A DNA stretch of 64,000 bases. Origin: Ottowia sp. Its GTDB lineage: Bacteria > Pseudomonadota > Gammaproteobacteria > Burkholderiales > Burkholderiaceae_C. Where the stretch lies: NCBI RefSeq assembly GCF_035348955.1, contig NZ_DAOPRM010000002.1; one strand, 5' to 3'. Position numbers and translations under genes: made by a program. The notes beneath the pieces are model-generated. The model was not told the origin of the DNA. It saw nothing but the letters and a program-made list of their open reading frames with translations, and did not search any database. Each line of letters starts with the position of its first letter. Position 1 is the first letter of the stretch. Shown here piece by piece: positions 6,317 to 58,013 of the stretch.

Positions 6317-7948
6317 ATGAATGCACTGATTTCCGTTTCGGACAAGACGGGCGTGGCCGAGTTTGCGGCGGCGCTGGTGGGGCTGGGCTTCAACCTGCTG
6401 TCGACCGGCGGCACGGCCAAGCTGCTGCAGGAGGCGGGGCTGCCCGTGACCGAGGTGGCCGAGGTGACGCGCTTTCCGGAGATGCTGGATGGCCGCGTGA
6501 AGACGCTGCACCCGGCCGTGCACGGCGGCCTGCTGGCGCGGCGCGACCTGCCGGCGCACATGCAGGCGCTGGCCGACCACGGCATCGGCAGCATCGACCT
6601 GGTGGTGATCAACCTGTATCCGTTCGAGTCCACGGTGGCACGCAAAGGCTGCACGCTGGCCGACGCGATCGAGAACATCGACATCGGCGGGCCGGCCATG
6701 GTGCGCAGCGCGGCCAAGAACTGGCAACACGTGGCCGTGCTGACCGACGCCAGCCAATACGCGCCGGTGCTGGCCGAATTGCAGGCCCATGAGGGCAAGC
6801 TGTCCGACAAGACGCGCTTCGGGCTGGCGGTGGCGGCGTTCAACCGCATCAGCAACTACGACGCGGCCATCAGCGATTACCTTTCTGCTATTGATTTCGA
6901 AGCTGCAGGCGCAGATGGCGTGCCGGCCAGGGGCCTGTTTTCTGCACAAAGCAATGGCCGATTCGTCAAGCTGCAGGACTTGCGCTACGGCGAAAACGCC
7001 CACCAGCAGGCGGCGCTGTACCGCGACCTGTACCCGGCGCCGGGCTCCATCGTCACGGCCGAGCAGTTGCAGGGCAAGGAGCTGAGCTACAACAACATCG
7101 CCGACGCCGACGCGGCGTGGGAATGCGTCAAGCAGTTCGACACGGGACCGAACGCGACCCTGGGCGCGGCCGCGGCCTGCGTGATCGTCAAGCACGCCAA
7201 CCCGTGCGGCGTGGCGGTGGGTGCGGATGCACTGCAGGCCTACCAGAAGGCCTTCAAGACCGACCCGACCAGCGCCTTTGGCGGCATCATCGCCTTCAAC
7301 GTGCCGGTCGATGGTGCGGCGGCCGAAGCGGTGTCCAAGCAGTTCGTCGAGGTGCTGATGGCGCCCGACTTCACGCCCGAGGCGCTGGCCGTGTTGCAGG
7401 CCAAGGCCAACGTGCGCGTGCTGCGCATTCCGCTGGACGGCGTGCAGCGCGACGGAGCCACCGACTGGGCGCGTGGCCAGAACGCCATCGACGTCAAGCG
7501 CGTGGGCTCGGGCCTGTTGATGCAGACCGCCGACAACCACGAGCTGAAGCTGTCGGACCTGAAAGTGGTGACGAAGAAGGCGCCGACCGATCAACAGCTG
7601 CAGGACCTGCTGTTCGCCTGGAACGTGGCCAAGTTCGTCAAGAGCAATGCCATCGTCTTCTGCAAGGACGGCATGACGATGGGCGTGGGCGCGGGGCAGA
7701 TGAGCCGCCTGGATTCGGCGCGCATCGCCAGCATCAAGGCCGGCCACGCCGGCTTGTCGCTGCAGGGCACGGCGGTGGCGAGCGATGCGTTCTTCCCGTT
7801 CCGCGACGGGCTGGACGTGGTCATCGACCACGGCGCCACCTGCGTGATCCAGCCCGGCGGCTCGATGCGCGACCAGGAAGTGATCGACGCGGCCGACGAG
7901 CGGGGTGTGGCGATGGTGTTCTCAGGCGTGCGGCACTTCAGGCACTGA
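6317..7948 (+). CDS. purH: Bifunctional AICAR formyltransferase / IMP cyclohydrolase
   Basis: [47 protein letters not shown]. Confidence 0.97.
6887..6950 (+). repeat. Family B motif embedded in purH coding sequence
   Basis: gctattgatttcgaagc-tgcag-gcgc-agatggcgtgc-cggc-caggggcctgtttt; local run of AT-ending codons. Confidence 0.65.
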
Positions 7949-41148: not shown

Positions 41149-41247
41149 CCCCCTGAGCCGCTTCGCGGCTTCCCCCTGAAAGGGGGACAACGCTGGTGGC
41201 CGGTGCAAGCCCGGCCACGGCGTTCCCGCATGGCCTGCTCCGCGGCC
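41149..41247 (+). repeat. Family A repeat directly after soxX stop
   Basis: ccccctgagccgcttcgcggcttccccctgaaagggggacaacgc..ggcgttccc..ggcctgctccgcggcc. Confidence 0.85.
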
Positions 41248-41264
41248 TTTTGAGAGCCTTGGAT

Positions 41265-42998
41265 ATGAACCTCACCAAACGCGAATTTCTGCAAGTCCTG
41301 AGTGCCGCCAGCGCAGCAGGCATGGGCCTTGGCAGCTATCAAAATGCAAGCGCACAGACGGCGGCCGAGGGGCTGTACGACATCCCCAAATTCGGCAACG
41401 TGTCGTTCCTGCACATCACCGACTGCCACGCGCAGCTCAAGCCCATCTACTTCCGCGAGCCCAGCGTCAATCTGGGCGTGGCCGACATGAAGGGCAAGCT
41501 GCCGCACCTGGTGGGCGAGCACCTGCTGAAGGTGGCCGGCGTCAAGCCCGGCACGGCCCAGGCGCACGCGCTGACCTACCTCGACTTCGAGCAGGCGGCG
41601 CAGCGCTACGGCAAGGTGGGCGGCTTTGCGCACCTGGCCACGCTGGTCAAGCGCCTGCGCGCCAGCCGCCCCGGCGCGCTGCTGCTGGACGGCGGCGACA
41701 CCTGGCAGGGCAGCGGCACGGCGCTGTGGACCAAGGGCCAGGACATGGTCGATGCCTGCAAGCTGCTCGGCGTCGATGTGATGACCGGCCACTGGGAATT
41801 CACCCTGGGCATGGACCGCGTGAAGGAAATCGTCGAGAAAGACTTTGCCGGCAAGGTCGACTTCGTCGCCCAGAACGTCAAGACACTCGACTTTGGCGAC
41901 CCGGTGTTCAAGCCCTACGTCATCAAGCCCATGAACGGCGTGCCGGTGGCCATCATCGGCCAGGCGTTTCCGTACACGCCCATCGCCAACCCGCGCTACA
42001 TGGTCAAGGACTGGGAATTCGGCATCCAGGACGAGAACATGCAGAAGATGGTCGACGAGGCCCGCGCCAAGGGCGCGCAGGTGGTGGTCGTCATCAGCCA
42101 CAACGGCATGGACGTCGATCTGAAGATGGCCAGCCGCGTGCGCGGCATCGACGCCATCATGGGCGGCCACACGCACGACGGCATGCCCGTGGCCAGCGTC
42201 ATCAAGAACGCCGGCGGCCAGACGCTGGTGACCAATGCCGGCAGCAACGGCAAATTCATCGGCGTGCTGGACTTTGACGTGAAGAACGGCAAGGTGGCCG
42301 ACTACCGCTACAAGCTGCTGCCCGTGTTTGCCAACATGCTGCCGGCCGACAAGGACATGGACGCGCTCATCACCAAAATCCGCGCCCCGTATGAAAGCAA
42401 ACTTGCCGAACAGCTGGGCGTGACCGAAGGCCTGCTGTACCGCCGCGGCAATTTCAACGGCACGGGCGACCAGCTCATCGTCGATGCCCTGATGGAAGCG
42501 CAGGGCGCGCAGATCGCCTTCTCGCCCGGCTTCCGCTGGGGCACCACGCTGCTGCCCGGCCAGCCCATCACGCGCGAATGGCTGCTGGACATGACCGCCA
42601 CCACCTACAGCTACGCCACGCTGACCGAGATGAAGGGCGAGATGCTCAAGACCATCCTCGAAGACGTGGCCGACAACCTGTTCAACCCCGACCCGTACTA
42701 CCAGCAAGGCGGCGACATGGTGCGCGTCGGCGGCCTGACCTACGCCTGCGACCCCCTGGCCAGCCAGGGCAAGCGCATCAGCGACATGCGCCTGAAGGGC
42801 CAGCCCATCGACGCCAGCAAGAACTACCTCGTCGCCGGCTGGGCGCCCGTCGCCGAAGACGCGTCGAAAGCCGGCAACAAGATGGTGTGGGACGTGATCG
42901 AGGACTGGCTCAAGTCCAAGGCCGGCAAGGTGACACCGCGCCAGGTCAACCAGCCCAAGCTGACCGGCGGGCTGCCGAATCCGGGGTATGCGGGCTGA
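41265..42998 (+). CDS. soxB: Thiosulfohydrolase SoxB
   Basis: KREFLQ Tat-like, HITDCHAQL, FREPSVNLG, DGGDTWQG, GGHTHD, QQGGDM. Confidence 0.97.
   Translation: MNLTKREFLQVLSAASAAGMGLGSYQNASAQTAAEGLYDIPKFGNVSFLHITDCHAQLKPIYFREPSVNLGVADMKGKLPHLVGEHLLKVAGVKPGTAQAHALTYLDFEQAAQRYGKVGGFAHLATLVKRLRASRPGALLLDGGDTWQGSGTALWTKGQDMVDACKLLGVDVMTGHWEFTLGMDRVKEIVEKDFAGKVDFVAQNVKTLDFGDPVFKPYVIKPMNGVPVAIIGQAFPYTPIANPRYMVKDWEFGIQDENMQKMVDEARAKGAQVVVVISHNGMDVDLKMASRVRGIDAIMGGHTHDGMPVASVIKNAGGQTLVTNAGSNGKFIGVLDFDVKNGKVADYRYKLLPVFANMLPADKDMDALITKIRAPYESKLAEQLGVTEGLLYRRGNFNGTGDQLIVDALMEAQGAQIAFSPGFRWGTTLLPGQPITREWLLDMTATTYSYATLTEMKGEMLKTILEDVADNLFNPDPYYQQGGDMVRVGGLTYACDPLASQGKRISDMRLKGQPIDASKNYLVAGWAPVAEDASKAGNKMVWDVIEDWLKSKAGKVTPRQVNQPKLTGGLPNPGYAG
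41286..41351 (-). repeat. Family B motif embedded in the soxB signal-peptide coding sequence
   Basis: rc: gcttgcattttgatagc-tgcca-aggc-ccatgcctgct-gcgc-tggcggcactcaggacttgcag. Confidence 0.7.
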
Positions 42999-43581: not shown

Positions 43582-43659
43582 CTGGCTTCCAGCCGCTCTT
43601 GCTTTGCGGCGTCGTCCGAAAGTGGACACCCGCCTGGCTCGGGCGTCCAGCGTTGGGCT

Positions 43660-43722
43660 GCTTCTCTTTAGATAGCGCTTGGCGCTTGTTCTGAAAGCGC
43701 TTGCGGCTGATTAGACTGTCAA
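43660..43722 (+). repeat. Family B motif copy
   Basis: gcttctctttagatagc-gcttg-gcgc-ttgttctgaaa-gcgc-ttgcggctgattagac. Confidence 0.8.
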
Positions 43723-43738
43723 GGAACGGTTTTGCGAC

Positions 43739-45154: not shown

Positions 45155-47569
45155 CTAGGGCGTTCGGAAGGTGGTGCCGCCGTAGTAGTTGCCTTCGCCG
45201 GCGGCCGGCCCGCTGCTCATGCCGTGCTGGCCGCGCAGGGGCGGCGGTGGCGCGGGGCGCGTCCACGCCTCGGGGTTGGCGGGCACCAGCGGCGGCATGA
45301 CGGGCGCCTCGTTGACGGGCATGGCGGCGCTGGGCTGCGGCTGGTTGGCCTGCTGCGCGGCGCGCATGTAGTCGTAGCGGTCGAGCGAGAAGGCCTCGGT
45401 GGCCGCGGCGTCGCGCACGATGACCGGGCGCAGGAAGACCATCAGATTGGTCTTGATCAGCTTGCGGTTGCGGTTCTTGAACAGGTTGCCCAGCACGGGC
45501 ACGTCGCCCAGCAGCGGCACCTTGTCTTCGCCTTCGCTGAACTGGTCTTCCATCAGGCCGCCCAGCACGACGACGGCGCCGTCGTCCACCAGCACGCTGG
45601 ATTCGATGGCGCGCTTGTTGGTGGTGGGGCCCGACAGGCTGGCCGCGGTGGCGGGGTCGACGCTGGAGGTCTCCTGGTAGATCACCATCTTGACCGTGCC
45701 GTTTTCGTTGATCTGCGGGCGCACGCGCAGGGTCAGCCCGACGTCCTTGCGCTCGTAGGTCTGAAACGGGTTGACGGTGCCGCCGCTGGCGCCGGTGTTG
45801 GTGAAGCTGCCGGTGGGCATGGGCACGTTCTGGCCCACCATGATCTTGGCTTCTTCATTGTCCAGCGTCAGCAGCGTGGGGGTGGACAGCACGTTGCCCG
45901 CGCCACTGGTCTGGATGAAGTTGGCCAGCAGCATCAGGTTGCGCGTGCCCAGCGCAAAGTTGAAGCCGGTGTTGGGCTTGGCCGCCAGCAGGCTGCTGAC
46001 GGTGTTGTTGTTGACGTAGTTGGTCACTGCGCCGGCCACGTCGAAGATGTTGGTGTTGGGCGTCATCGGCGAGGTGGCACGCCCCGACGAATAGTTGGTG
46101 CCCAGCACGCCGATGGTGTTGCGGCCGTTGCCCAGCAGCTGCTGCCACTGCACGCCCAGGTCGGCCGCCTTGCTCATGCTGACCTCGGCGATCAGGCTTT
46201 CGACGTAGACCTGCGCGCGGCGCTGGTCCAGCCGGTCGATGACGGCGCGCAATTCGCGGTACACCGGCTCGGCCGCGCTGATGATGAGCGAGTTGGTCGC
46301 CGGGTCGGCCTGAATCTGGCCGCCGGTGGCCGGCTGGTTGTTGGCGGCGGCGTTGATGCTCGGCCCGGTGGCCAGGCCGCCCGCGGTGCCGCCCATCTGC
46401 GCGCCGGCCAGCATCTGGTTGATGCCTGCCGGGCTGCTGGGGATGGCGCTGCCCGTGCCCCCCACCGCGCCGGCGGACGGCGTCTGCCCCGGCAGCGCCG
46501 CCAGCGCGGCGCGCAGCGTGACGGCCAGCTTGGCGGCGTCGGCGTTCTTCAGGTAGACGACGTGGATGTTGCCGGTGCTGCCGTCGGCGCGCACCTGCGG
46601 CGGCTGGTCGAGCTGCTGGATCAGCGTCTTGGCCAGCGCCAGCCGCGCCGGGTTGGCGGCGCGCACGATGATGGCGTTGCTGCGCGGCTCGGGCACCAGC
46701 GTGGTGCGGTAGCCACTGTCGCCGCCGCCCAGGGCCGCCGCGACGGGCATGGCGGGCTGCCCCGGCGCCGCGGTCGCGGGCGCGCCGCCGGCGCCCGAAT
46801 CGATGAGCCGCGCCACCAGCGGCGCCAGGTCAGACGCCACCGCGTGGCGCAGGCGAACCACTTCGACCCCGGTGGCGTTGGACACGTCCAGCGCCGCGAT
46901 GATGCGGGCCAGGCGCTGCAGGTTGTCGCCGTAGTCGGTGATGACCAGCGCGTTGGTGCCGGGGTTGACGTTGATGGTGTTGTTGGGGCTGATCAGCGGG
47001 CGCAGCACCGGCACCAGGTTGTTGGCGTTCTCGTGCGTCAGGCGGAATATCTGCGTCTGCACCTGCCCGCCGCCGCGCACCGCGCCGGCCGATACGCTGG
47101 ACGCCTGCAGCTTGGCGTCGGATTCGGGCAGGACCAGCACCATGCCGCTGGATTCAAGCAGCGCGAAGCCCTGCGTGCGCAATTGCGCGCCAAACAGCCG
47201 CAGCGCCTGAGCCGGCGACACCGGCGTGGTGCTGGTCAGCGTCATGGTGCCCTTGACGCGCGGGTCCACCACCACGTTGCGCCCGGTGATGGTGGCCATG
47301 GTGCGCGCCACGGCGTCGATCTCGGCGTTGGCAAAGTCCAGCGTGACGTTGCCGCCGCCGCTGGCCGCGCTCTGCGCCATGGCTGGTGCCAGCGGCAGCG
47401 CCGTGGCCAGCGCCAGCAGCACGGCCAGCGCCGTGCGCGCGGCGCGCGGCGGGGGAGTGATGCAAAAGGCGCGTGGCATGGGCGGACGTGACCAGAAAGC
47501 TATGGGTAATGTAGCAAATGGCCGCCGGGGGGCGGGCGCCGGGGCGGTATCTTGATGCAAAAAAGCCAT
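45155..47569 (-). CDS. gspD: T2SS secretin GspD
   Basis: VVDPRVKG, LRPLISP, QVYVESLIAEV, LDNEEA, KVPLLGDVP; start 47569 or 47479. Confidence 0.95.
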   Translation of the reverse strand: MAFLHQDTAPAPAPRRPFATLPIAFWSRPPMPRAFCITPPPRAARTALAVLLALATALPLAPAMAQSAASGGGNVTLDFANAEIDAVARTMATITGRNVVVDPRVKGTMTLTSTTPVSPAQALRLFGAQLRTQGFALLESSGMVLVLPESDAKLQASSVSAGAVRGGGQVQTQIFRLTHENANNLVPVLRPLISPNNTINVNPGTNALVITDYGDNLQRLARIIAALDVSNATGVEVVRLRHAVASDLAPLVARLIDSGAGGAPATAAPGQPAMPVAAALGGGDSGYRTTLVPEPRSNAIIVRAANPARLALAKTLIQQLDQPPQVRADGSTGNIHVVYLKNADAAKLAVTLRAALAALPGQTPSAGAVGGTGSAIPSSPAGINQMLAGAQMGGTAGGLATGPSINAAANNQPATGGQIQADPATNSLIISAAEPVYRELRAVIDRLDQRRAQVYVESLIAEVSMSKAADLGVQWQQLLGNGRNTIGVLGTNYSSGRATSPMTPNTNIFDVAGAVTNYVNNNTVSSLLAAKPNTGFNFALGTRNLMLLANFIQTSGAGNVLSTPTLLTLDNEEAKIMVGQNVPMPTGSFTNTGASGGTVNPFQTYERKDVGLTLRVRPQINENGTVKMVIYQETSSVDPATAASLSGPTTNKRAIESSVLVDDGAVVVLGGLMEDQFSEGEDKVPLLGDVPVLGNLFKNRNRKLIKTNLMVFLRPVIVRDAAATEAFSLDRYDYMRAAQQANQPQPSAAMPVNEAPVMPPLVPANPEAWTRPAPPPPLRGQHGMSSGPAAGEGNYYGGTTFRTP
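47499..47562 (+). repeat. Family B motif copy at the gspD 5' end
   Basis: gctatgggtaatgtagc-aaatg-gccg-ccggggggcgg-gcgc-cggggcggtatcttgatgcaaaa. Confidence 0.65.
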
Positions 47570-49140: not shown

Positions 49141-50354
49141 GGCGCGGCCACCTGTCGCAGCACGGTGCTGTCGCCTTCGGCGGACAGGGCGTAGCCTTGC
49201 GGGCGCAGGCGCTGGTTGGCGTCGGTCAGCGCGGCGGCGGCCACCGTGACGCCTTTCAGCCGCAGCTCGCCTGCTGCAAATTCGATAGCTGTCGGCGCAG
49301 TACTGACGGGCGCTGACTGCGCAAAAGCCTGCAGCATCGGCTCCAGGTCGCGCGGCGAGGCGGCGCCGGTGGCCTGGCGCAGCTGGGCGACCTCGCGCGC
49401 CATCTGCGCCGGCGCGTCCACCACCACCTTGACGGCGGGGAAAGTCTGGGTCAGCAGCGCCTGGTTGGCGGCGCGGCGCGCGGCCAGATCGTCCTGCGTG
49501 CGCCAGGCCAGCACGTTCAGGCCGATCAGGTTGGCCAGCACCAGCAGCGCCAGCCCCCAGCGGGCTGGCCGCCACAGCGGGGCGTGCAGAAAGTCGCGCC
49601 ACAGCGCACCGGCGCGCTTGGCGGCGCGCGCGCGCCCGGTGCGGGCAAACTGGAACTGCGCCAAATCCCACCCGCTGCGGCTGGCGCGCAGCAGGCGCTG
49701 CGCGGGCGATTCGATGGCGACCGGTTGCTGCAGCGTCTGTTCGGCCAGCGCCGCCACGGCCGGTTCGGCGCGCAGCTCGGGCAGCGGCGCGTCGTCGGGG
49801 CGGGGCGGCAGCAGCGCCAGCGTGCCGACGTCGAGCGGCAGCGCCTGCGCGCCGCCCGGCACCTCGGCGCCGCTCATCAGCAGCAGGGCGCGCTCCGGCG
49901 TGCCGGTCACCAGCCATTGCAGCGGCCCGTCCTGCGGCGGCAGCTCGGGCACGATGCGGCTGACCGGGCGGCCGGCGGCTTCCAGCGCGGCCATGTGGTC
50001 GGCCAGCCAGGCGCGGTCGCATACGGCCACCCAGGCGCTGGCGCCGGCCTGTGCGCCGGGCGCCAGGGCGAAGTGAAGGCCTTCGACGTCGTCCAGCACC
50101 TGCTCTTCCAGCAGGCCGTCGAGCACGGTGCGCAGGCGCGGCGAGGCGGGGCCAACGCCGCGGGGCAGCGTCACCCGCTGCCACGACAGCTGGCTGGCCG
50201 GCGCCACGGCCACCACTTCGACACCGCGCCCGGCCGGCGGCAGCAGCGCCGGCGCCGCGCTGCCATGCGCCGCCACGCCCTGGCCGTCGTCCGAGGTGGC
50301 AAAGTCATAGCCGGCCGGCGCACCCGGCGGCAGGGCGATCAGAAGGAGGCTCAT
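49137..50354 (-). CDS. gspL: T2SS protein GspL
   Basis: LSWQRV.LP, LEEQVLDD..LHFAL, WDLAQF, TM, TFP.V.VVVDAP.QM. Confidence 0.9.
   Translation of the reverse strand: MSLLLIALPPGAPAGYDFATSDDGQGVAAHGSAAPALLPPAGRGVEVVAVAPASQLSWQRVTLPRGVGPASPRLRTVLDGLLEEQVLDDVEGLHFALAPGAQAGASAWVAVCDRAWLADHMAALEAAGRPVSRIVPELPPQDGPLQWLVTGTPERALLLMSGAEVPGGAQALPLDVGTLALLPPRPDDAPLPELRAEPAVAALAEQTLQQPVAIESPAQRLLRASRSGWDLAQFQFARTGRARAAKRAGALWRDFLHAPLWRPARWGLALLVLANLIGLNVLAWRTQDDLAARRAANQALLTQTFPAVKVVVDAPAQMAREVAQLRQATGAASPRDLEPMLQAFAQSAPVSTAPTAIEFAAGELRLKGVTVAAAALTDANQRLRPQGYALSAEGDSTVLRQVAAP
49273..49335 (+). repeat. Family B motif embedded in gspL coding sequence (antisense)
   Basis: gctgcaaattcgatagc-tgtcg-gcgc-agtactgacgg-gcgc-tgactgcgcaaaagcc. 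Confidence 0.7.
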
Positions 50355-57301: not shown

Positions 57302-57323
57302 GGGAGATGCTCCGATTCGCTAT

Positions 57324-58013
57324 TTATTTGGTAGCTGGCTGCGCTTGTTGAACGCCGGGAAAGGCGGCATTCAATGCCAAATTGAGCCGAAGCACGTTGA
57401 CGCGCGGCTCGCCCAGCAAGCCAAGCACGCGGCCTTCCGTATGCTGACTCAAAAATTGTTGCACCTGCTCCAAGGGGATGCCGCGCGCCTTGGCCACGCG
57501 CCCCACCTGGGCTTGCGCGTTGGCGACCGAGATGTGCGGATCGAGCCCGGAGGCTGAGGCGGTGACGGCGTCCACCGGCACTGGCGCGGTAGAGCCGAGC
57601 CCGTTGGTTTTGCGGTAATCCGCCACGCGCTGCGTCACGGCGTCAATCAGCGCCTGGTTGGTCGGCCCCTGGTTGCTGCCAGCGGACAACGCGGCGTTGT
57701 AGGGCGCGGCGACGGTCTTGCTGGCGTCCTGCGGATCGGGCGCGCTGGTGGCGCTGGGGCGCGGGTGGAAGTGGCGCGCGTCGCTGAAATGCTGGCCGAT
57801 TAGGTCGGAGCCGATCAACGCGCTGCCGCGCTCGATCAGGCTGCCGCCCGCTTGGCGCGGCATCAGCATCTGCGCCACGCCGGTGGTCAGCAGCGGATAA
57901 ACCAGGCCGGTGAGCAGCGCCACGAAGACGGCGCCGCGCAGGCAGGGGCCGATCAGGCCACGCAGCGGTGATGCGGCAGCCACGGTGTCGGGGGTGATTT
58001 CAAGTGTGTTCAT
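57324..58013 (-). CDS. kdpC: KdpC
   Basis: GLVYP, GS.LIGQ.F, FHPRPSA, VTASASGLDPHIS, VNVLRLN. Confidence 0.95.
   Translation of the reverse strand: MNTLEITPDTVAAASPLRGLIGPCLRGAVFVALLTGLVYPLLTTGVAQMLMPRQAGGSLIERGSALIGSDLIGQHFSDARHFHPRPSATSAPDPQDASKTVAAPYNAALSAGSNQGPTNQALIDAVTQRVADYRKTNGLGSTAPVPVDAVTASASGLDPHISVANAQAQVGRVAKARGIPLEQVQQFLSQHTEGRVLGLLGEPRVNVLRLNLALNAAFPGVQQAQPATK

Follow-up and report, generated by a model that had tools for sequence, protein, structure and literature searches.

The minus strand of the codons for the SoxB signal peptide resembles the left half of family B, an abundant hairpin repeat of Ottowia, and on balance we regard this stretch as an inherited look-alike of that half rather than as a B copy by descent. 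The site contains no insertion and no hairpin, and each of its B-matching states is shared with orthologues. The sequence itself is as the preliminary description gave it. The minus strand of 41286-41351 reads GCTTGCATTTTGATAGC-TGCCA-AGGC-CCATGCCTGCT-GCGC-TGGCGGC, and it does resemble family B, with a 16-nt core, a GCT and GCGCTGGCGGC in register. The features in the window, that is, the whole stretch of 64,000 nucleotides analysed, are collected in Table 1.

Table 1. Features of the soxB region, in positions of the window
Feature	Position	Strand	Description
soxB CDS	41265..42998	+	Thiosulfohydrolase SoxB, 577 aa; TIGR04486 875.7 bits (cut-off 550), residues 4-568
Signal-peptide codons 1-30	41265..41354	+	MNLTKREFLQVLSAASAAGMGLGSYQNASA, by direct sequence reading
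B-like site	41288..41354	-	Spans 67 PWM columns of family B; 12.4 bits in total (left +14.4, hairpin -4.1, right +2.1)
GCGCTGGCGGC	41304..41314	-	Columns 41-51, in register with the B right hairpin arm and tail; antisense of GCC GCC AGC GC (A-A-S-A)
Expected left hairpin arm GCGCTTG and loop	41315..41330	-	Antisense of the AGMGLG codons; arm absent
16-nt exact B-core match CATTTTGATAGCTGCC	41331..41346	-	Antisense of GGC AGC TAT CAA AAT G (G-S-Y-Q-N)
Nearest full family B copy	43657..43723	+	Intergenic, downstream of the soxB stop; PWM 51.6 bits; nhmmer E=2.1e-7 in L001

SoxB and its leader peptide

SoxB carries the Pfam domains Metallophos and 5_nucleotid_C. The n-region of its leader, T-K-R-E-F-L-Q, is a K-R version of the twin-arginine motif; the h-region VLSAASAAGMGLG and the c-region SYQNASA follow, and by the AxA rule alone, cleavage is predicted after A-S-A, before Q31. 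The plus strand at 41286-41351 encodes MNLTKREFLQVLSAASAAGMGLGSYQNASAQ of this protein. The c-region contains four consecutive rare A/T-ending codons, TAT CAA AAT GCA.

Like Tat signal peptides, the leader begins with a polar n-region containing x-R-x-F-L, continues with an h-region that is rich in Ala/Gly and weakly hydrophobic, ends in a c-region of the AxA type, and heads a cofactor-containing periplasmic enzyme. The Tat consensus has R-R (S/T-R-R-x-F-L-K), whereas K-R is found throughout Ottowia and in most Comamonadaceae SoxB. The Pfam profile Tat_signal gave no match in SoxB at E<=0.1. More than 100 SoxB proteins have the same leader in conserved form. Judged from these sequences, the SoxB leader is an ordinary, ancient, fixed-length and conserved predicted Tat-like signal peptide of the K-R type. 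The preliminary description had likewise read the peptide as an ordinary Tat h/c-region.

Family B in the genome

The assembly comprises 3.23 Mb with 67.6% GC, and the 8-mer TTGATAGC occurs in it 227 times, mostly within one conserved motif. An HMM built from the genome's own copies of this motif, family B, gave 467 matches at E<=1e-6 in the 3.23 Mb. The consensus is ttGCTat..tTTTGATAGCTGcttGCGCTTG.c.GGCAAGCGCtgGcGGCc.aTTTgact..aAa. Its core TTTGATAGCTGC occupies columns 12-23, its left inverted pair is GCTAT-N7-ATAGC, and its inner hairpin has the two arms of GCGCTTG-N5/7-CAAGCGC. The strong intergenic copies lie in 214 tandem, 85 convergent and 17 divergent gaps, in both orientations. Family B is a REP-like hairpin repeat, real and abundant. 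A scan of the window at the Rfam gathering thresholds matched no family. The B sequence itself encodes Ala/Ser-rich peptides, and in the window pseudopilin genes carry strong in-frame copies at their 5' ends.

The abundance of B varies across Ottowia from 0 to 403 cores per genome. The highest number is found in G020, and Ottowia sp. VDI28 (G001), with 6.6 Mb, has 0 cores. A replichore strand bias of B was considered and dropped, the strands being interleaved in G020, a complete genome.

The match at the SoxB site

The core TTTGATAGCTGC is exact at the SoxB site, and the identity extends to 16 nt. This 16-mer has one further occurrence in the genome, and the 14-mer TTTTGATAGCTGCC is found 9 times, in every case within B copies. 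Upstream of the core, GCT stands at columns 4-6 in register with B; in place of the left inverted pair the site has GCTTG-N7-ATAGC, whose left member agrees with B at 3 of 5 positions. There is no left hairpin arm: where B has GCGCTTG, the site shows AGGCCCA at columns 26-32, identical at 2 of 7 bases, and the GCGC of the right arm is the only part of the inner hairpin present. The site thus amounts to the left half of B with a passable right half. A specific donor copy was sought and rejected; no B copy is identical to the site over more than 16 nt, and neighbouring GC-rich stretches share 16- to 17-mers with unrelated loci.

By the account of the preliminary description, a PWM score of this site within background would speak against its view. 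The local HMM score lies within background, and the full-length PWM score lies above it. With nhmmer the site reaches E=2.5 and 8.9 bits, HMM positions 9-29 alone being aligned, and the reversed genome yields 5 matches of equal quality. With the full-length, ungapped PWM of 67 columns, 0.005 sites per genome are expected at 12.4 bits or more under an iid null, the top score in the reversed genome is 10.8 bits, and 40 codon shuffles of 2771 genes produced 2 such sites (0.05 per genome). For the SoxB peptide under N-terminal codon usage, a PWM score of this size has P ~1e-4. The site is nevertheless the weakest when set beside the twelve other B sites in the window, which score 23-69 bits. Two further B-like sites in the window, one of them at 47496 and listed in the preliminary description, reach 2.7-3.8 bits (2.7 at 47496).

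In the genome, 17 weak PWM sites of this level lie in otherwise B-free genes, and that in SoxB scores lowest among them. Most of these weak sites are therefore not due to chance. Both their number and the rarity of 12.4 bits in shuffled genes count against a mere look-alike at SoxB, and the same rarity favours a B site in the making.

Comparison with orthologues

The architecture and length of the SoxB leader are the same in 29 of 29 Ottowia orthologues, with no indel. Among 80 other SoxB proteins from Comamonadaceae and Burkholderiales, LYD.P was detected in 69, at residue 36 in 68 of them. The leader consensus across these 80 is MNL[ST]KREF.QV.GA...AGMGLG, and AGMGLG is near-invariant across Comamonadaceae. 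Simple insertion is excluded, because the leader has the same length in Ottowia and in most other Comamonadaceae orthologues.

The right part of the site follows the conserved h-region. In the GCGCTGGCGGC columns, 10 of 11 are identical in all 14 tabulated orthologues, including those of B-free genomes. The exact 11-mer is present in about two thirds of the Ottowia orthologues, and most others are one base off. In one set of 15 of them, 11 have it and the rest deviate by one base, except L012, which deviates by two. The hairpin and right-part PWM scores of the SoxB site match the usual orthologue values, and the left hairpin arm is absent in every tabulated orthologue (n=14).

The c-region is the sole variable part, with the forms GSYQNAS, GHYQNAS, TRYQDAS, SSHQNAS, G[RH]FA[ND]AS and NRYAHA. 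The B-free genome of VDI28 has GSYQNAS, whose antisense is GCTTGCATTCTGATAGCTGCC; 20 of 21 core bases are identical, the difference being CAG for CAA, a synonymous change. Three further B-free genomes (G018, G064 and G009) have HYQNAS with TAT CAG AAT. With few exceptions, the Ottowia orthologues retain T at the third position of the Tyr/Phe codon. In the tree of the mature part of SoxB, the basal position is taken by the B-free YQNAS clade, and L001 pairs as sister with L002, whose c-region reads GRFANAS; because of this placement, the YQ haplotype appears to be old or recombined and not created by B in the source genome.

High scores at soxB are restricted to the genome analysed here (G000) and its sister species G054, with 12.4 and 12.7 bits. 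These two genomes are 97% identical, and 149 of 150 nt are the same at the SoxB site. The B-free genomes score -7.6 to -19.8 bits at this register. Most B-rich genomes lack the motif: 15 of 17 score -3 to -55 bits, among them G020, the most B-rich, which has the YQ haplotype yet scores -3.3. Lineage-unique bases occupy 4 of the 67 columns, with PWM contributions of -0.5, -0.1, -0.5 and -0.7, none toward B, and 10.1 of the 12.4 bits come from columns in which an orthologue from a B-free genome has the identical base. Every B-matching base at the site is found also in orthologues. These results, together with the missing hairpin half, do not support the earlier view that the SoxB stretch is a B copy.

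The Gln codon remains as the point of difference. In the YQ haplotype it is CAA in three of three B-rich genomes and CAG in four of four B-free genomes, a contrast that weighs against the look-alike and goes back to only one or two independent events. On its own CAA is unremarkable, with a share of 26% among the Gln codons at codons 1-40 and of 22% after TAT.

Placement and enrichment of B sites

It had also been proposed to test whether B hits are enriched in DNA for signal peptides. The opposite was found at gene 5' ends, where PWM sites of 12.4 bits or more are depleted: of 253 such sites, the first 120 nt of genes hold 14, where 32 are expected. With nhmmer, strong matches at gene 5' ends number 12 against 21 expected and weak ones 13 against 13. 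Signal-peptide-like genes account for 4 of the 13 weak 5'-end nhmmer matches, with no over-representation. The gene calls are crude, from an ORF finder plus a codon-score caller, and the counts of intragenic B are upper bounds, in that some copies lie where two adjacent genes were called as a single ORF.

In genes without a B site, the exact core TTGATAGC occurs at 1.5x the codon-shuffle expectation and CTGATAGC at 0.72x. The one-mismatch neighbour 8-mers of TTGATAGC scatter from 0.09 to 2.2. A general push on isolated cores is not demonstrated, because the 1.5x excess falls within this scatter.

Full B copies inside other genes

As positive controls, intragenic B copies in four genes were compared with orthologues from B-free Ottowia. 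In the purH linker the B-rich sequence scores 23 bits and the B-free ones -41 to -60. In gspL the values are 35 and 50 bits against -10 to -50, and in a purL loop 66, 66 and 62 bits against -25 and -33. The linker between TMD and NBD of an SbmA-like ABC transporter gives 84 and 57 bits against -27 to -39. None of the four copies is accompanied by an insertion at the site, and lengths are equal except in purL, for which 2 of 3 B-free orthologues are 4 codons shorter. Each of the four occupies a variable loop or an interdomain linker.

The purL copy is the closest parallel to soxB. Its core covers the conserved S-A-S-Y-Q-K, in the same antisense frame as G-S-Y-Q-N in SoxB, and there too CAG in B-free genomes contrasts with CAA in B-rich ones at the Gln codon. 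Judging by these alignments, B motifs do form in place in Ottowia coding DNA. The earlier argument for formation in place over insertion therefore stands in two respects, namely that insertion is excluded at SoxB and that in-place B copies occur in the four genes. It does not stand for conversion at SoxB, or for the status of the SoxB stretch as a B copy.

Comparison with known systems

REP/BIME elements are repetitive extragenic palindromes of proteobacteria that form GC-rich hairpins. Family B shares with them hundreds of copies, a GC-rich hairpin, conserved flanks, both orientations, a location in gaps after genes and scarcity in divergent promoter gaps. REPs are found outside genes, whereas the SoxB site is situated at the 5' end of a coding sequence and has no palindrome. 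Rickettsia palindromic elements (RPE) are reportedly repeats inserted in frame into ORFs (Ogata et al. 2000), adding residues. As with RPEs, the B-like DNA is translated within tolerant regions of proteins, but SoxB and the four other B-bearing genes have no added length at the site relative to repeat-free orthologues.

Uptake sequences (USS/DUS) occur inside coding regions, preferentially at poorly conserved residues (Findlay & Redfield 2009, PMC2817400). The full B copies in purL, gspL, purH and the ABC-transporter linker likewise lie within genes without a change of protein length, and uptake sequences would offer a model for a SoxB site at an early stage. The likeness concerns the sequence pattern; the USS/DUS core has 9-12 nt, whereas B has ~60 nt and is structured, with a hairpin. 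The SoxB site, moreover, is only half of a B motif, and nearly identical DNA is present in a motif-free genome.

Origin of the SoxB site

The look-alike that we favour would have drawn its likeness to B from two independent sources. First, the conserved Ala/Ser-rich h-region AASAAGMGLG gives GCGCTGGCGGC on the antisense strand in a high-GC genus, with B or without it. Second, the c-region haplotype G-S-Y-Q-N-A-S, with the A/T-ending codons AGC TAT CAA AAT GCA, gives TGCATTTTGATAGCTGCC; this haplotype is one among several c-region alternatives, found also in B-free Ottowia. G000 and G054 stand one synonymous transition, CAG to CAA, from the core of B-free VDI28. We infer that this last base change was neutral and that the site has no B function. 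The comparison with orthologues speaks for such an origin, and so do the lack of a donor copy, the missing left hairpin arm, the weak nhmmer match, the ordinary frequency of CAA and the depletion of B sites at gene 5' ends. Against it, beside the score and the codon contrast noted above, stands the in-place formation of full B copies where sites were pre-adapted in B-rich Ottowia, with purL (SASYQK) displaying the same CAG/CAA contrast.

A less probable reading, although one to be taken seriously, is that an incipient partial B site was formed in place on the pre-adapted c-region (SYQN) of SoxB, with fixation of the change from CAG to CAA. Molecular drive, selection for a DNA signal and short-patch conversion from the ~500 copies are candidates for the process, which would also underlie the persistence of the site, and extension into the hairpin half would be blocked by the invariant AGMGLG h-region below it. 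The insertion-free copies in the four control genes and the S-Y-Q-K core of purL speak for this reading, as does the mild excess of TTGATAGC in genes without B, although that excess is inside the neighbour scatter. On the other side, the core is at most one substitution from that of a B-free genome, CAA being expected in about 1 in 4 cases regardless, and no lineage-unique base goes toward B. The B-rich genomes show no trend either, as is evident from 15 of 17 and from G020 with its YQ haplotype, and a full B copy is already present 2.3 kb from the SoxB site. The wider form of this idea, of about the same probability, would take family B as a ~60-nt DNA signal that B-rich Ottowia write over tolerant codons while protein length stays the same, with the SoxB leader as a nascent site stalled after the change from CAG to CAA.

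It is unlikely that the stretch is a functional antisense or DNA-level element, in which a half-site (GCT-N11-AGC plus core), preserved by selection on DNA, would be bound by a putative B reader or act on soxB transcription. The run of rare A/T-ending codons, the near identity of G000 and G054 at the site and the retention of the third-position T in the Tyr/Phe codon would all fit such an element. However, with 1 of 150 nt different, the two genomes are too similar for the conservation to tell anything, and TAT/TTT and AAT are present in B-free genomes as well, so they are not linked to B. The site also has no hairpin, and since divergent gaps hold no more than 17 of the 316 strong intergenic copies, their placement points to a role downstream of genes rather than inside gene 5' ends.

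That an antisense B element once entered the soxB leader in frame, in the manner of RPEs, and has since eroded is highly improbable: the in-frame copies at the pseudopilin 5' ends offer a precedent, but the conserved leader length, extending to other genera without B, contradicts it, the would-be hairpin region encodes the family-wide conserved AGMGLG, and no orthologue has the left hairpin arm.

Implications

The look-alike and the incipient site differ over the cause of essentially one nucleotide. The SoxB case illustrates how half a repeat can be imitated by a conserved signal peptide where the genome is rich in GC, and why even a striking PWM score calls for comparison with orthologues before the stretch is taken for a copy.

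The full copies in other genes carry a different message. Complete copies of a 60-nt hairpin repeat lie within essential genes without a change in length, and nothing of them is seen in the repeat-free orthologues. REPs, MITEs and other inserting elements behave otherwise than these intragenic copies. The pattern of B, as seen in the sequences, suggests a DNA motif under genome-wide positive pressure, with a putative reader. If B is indeed a signal written over tolerant codons, cleaved leaders and linkers would be places where it nucleates on chance core-like codons, for instance those of S-Y-Q, and the SoxB site, if it is an early stage, would provide a one-nucleotide handle on how B sites start.

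Family B copies within coding regions

The copy of the REP-like repeat family B in the gene for an SbmA-like ABC transporter fills the linker joining the membrane domain to the ATPase domain. The length of this transporter is unchanged in three orthologues from Ottowia genomes without family B cores (B-free), and the orthologue of the sister species, G054, has a B-like stretch at the linker, with small indels. The copy inside purL is a full one and is also kept in two other B-rich genomes, G054 and G020, the latter being the most B-rich. The B-free purL orthologues are equal in length to the B-bearing genes or four codons shorter; the PWM gives -25 and -33 at their sites, of which they retain SASYQK only. 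The Gln codon at this site is CAA in the B-rich genomes versus CAG in the B-free ones.

Family B sites in and near genes of the Ottowia genome studied (G000; C, contig; L, extracted locus)
Site	Position	Strand	Score (bits)	Comparison
SbmA-like ABC transporter	G000:C4:72895-74712 (L136:574-771)		84	L140-L143
purL	G000:C6:37232-41551 (L138:811-930), at AFQAKSAAGAVGTSAASYQKQSE	antisense to purL	66	L150-L154
purH	window 6884-6950			length same as B-free orthologues
gspL	window 49270-49336			length same as B-free orthologues
Additional copy	window 57316-57382	+	33.7

The gspL copy of G020 scores 50 bits and contains a perfect 11-bp inverted repeat. The additional copy, which is not among the 14 listed in the preliminary description, overlaps a gene call on the minus strand (57324-58013) at that call's 3′ end. 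Separately, purH of G000 carries a nine-residue insertion, DTGPNATLG, at residues ~275-283 (window ~7137-7165); it is located ~65 residues downstream of the purH B site and is not present in four other Ottowia genomes.

The soxB leader and its upstream gap

A multi-hairpin element of ~100 nt, earlier named family A, lies at window 41150-41262, in the gap separating the stop of the upstream gene from the start of soxB. G054 lacks this element upstream of soxB and has a short terminator-like hairpin in its place. Despite the differing upstream gap, G000 and G054 share 99% identity over the first 150 nt of soxB. The twin-arginine position of SoxB (codons K5-R6, window 41277-41282) is K-R, not R-R, in nearly all of ~110 Comamonadaceae sequences (including L056-L135); T-R is found in a few, and R-R in more distant sequences only (e.g. 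L126 and L014).

Architecture and distribution of family B

The left part of the B consensus (columns 4-20) is an inverted pair, GCTAT-N7-ATAGC, with an A/T-rich spacer. Several weak intragenic sites retain the GCT-N11-AGC and GCGC anchors and little more. Family B is patchy across Ottowia, where the number of cores in a genome varies between 0 and 403, and was not found in 16 genomes from other families of the order. Genome G012 has few exact cores, yet three strong HMM copies lie inside the 4.7 kb adjoining its soxB, showing that variant cores exist.

A family B copy possibly bridging two neighbouring genes

The crude gene caller reads G000:C5:44259-46709 (L137) as a single ORF of 816 codons that has a B copy inside it. 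The matches of this ORF in B-free genomes are two separate pieces, and its counterpart in G020 has an in-frame TGA. Both observations suggest that the B copy bridges two adjacent genes in frame.
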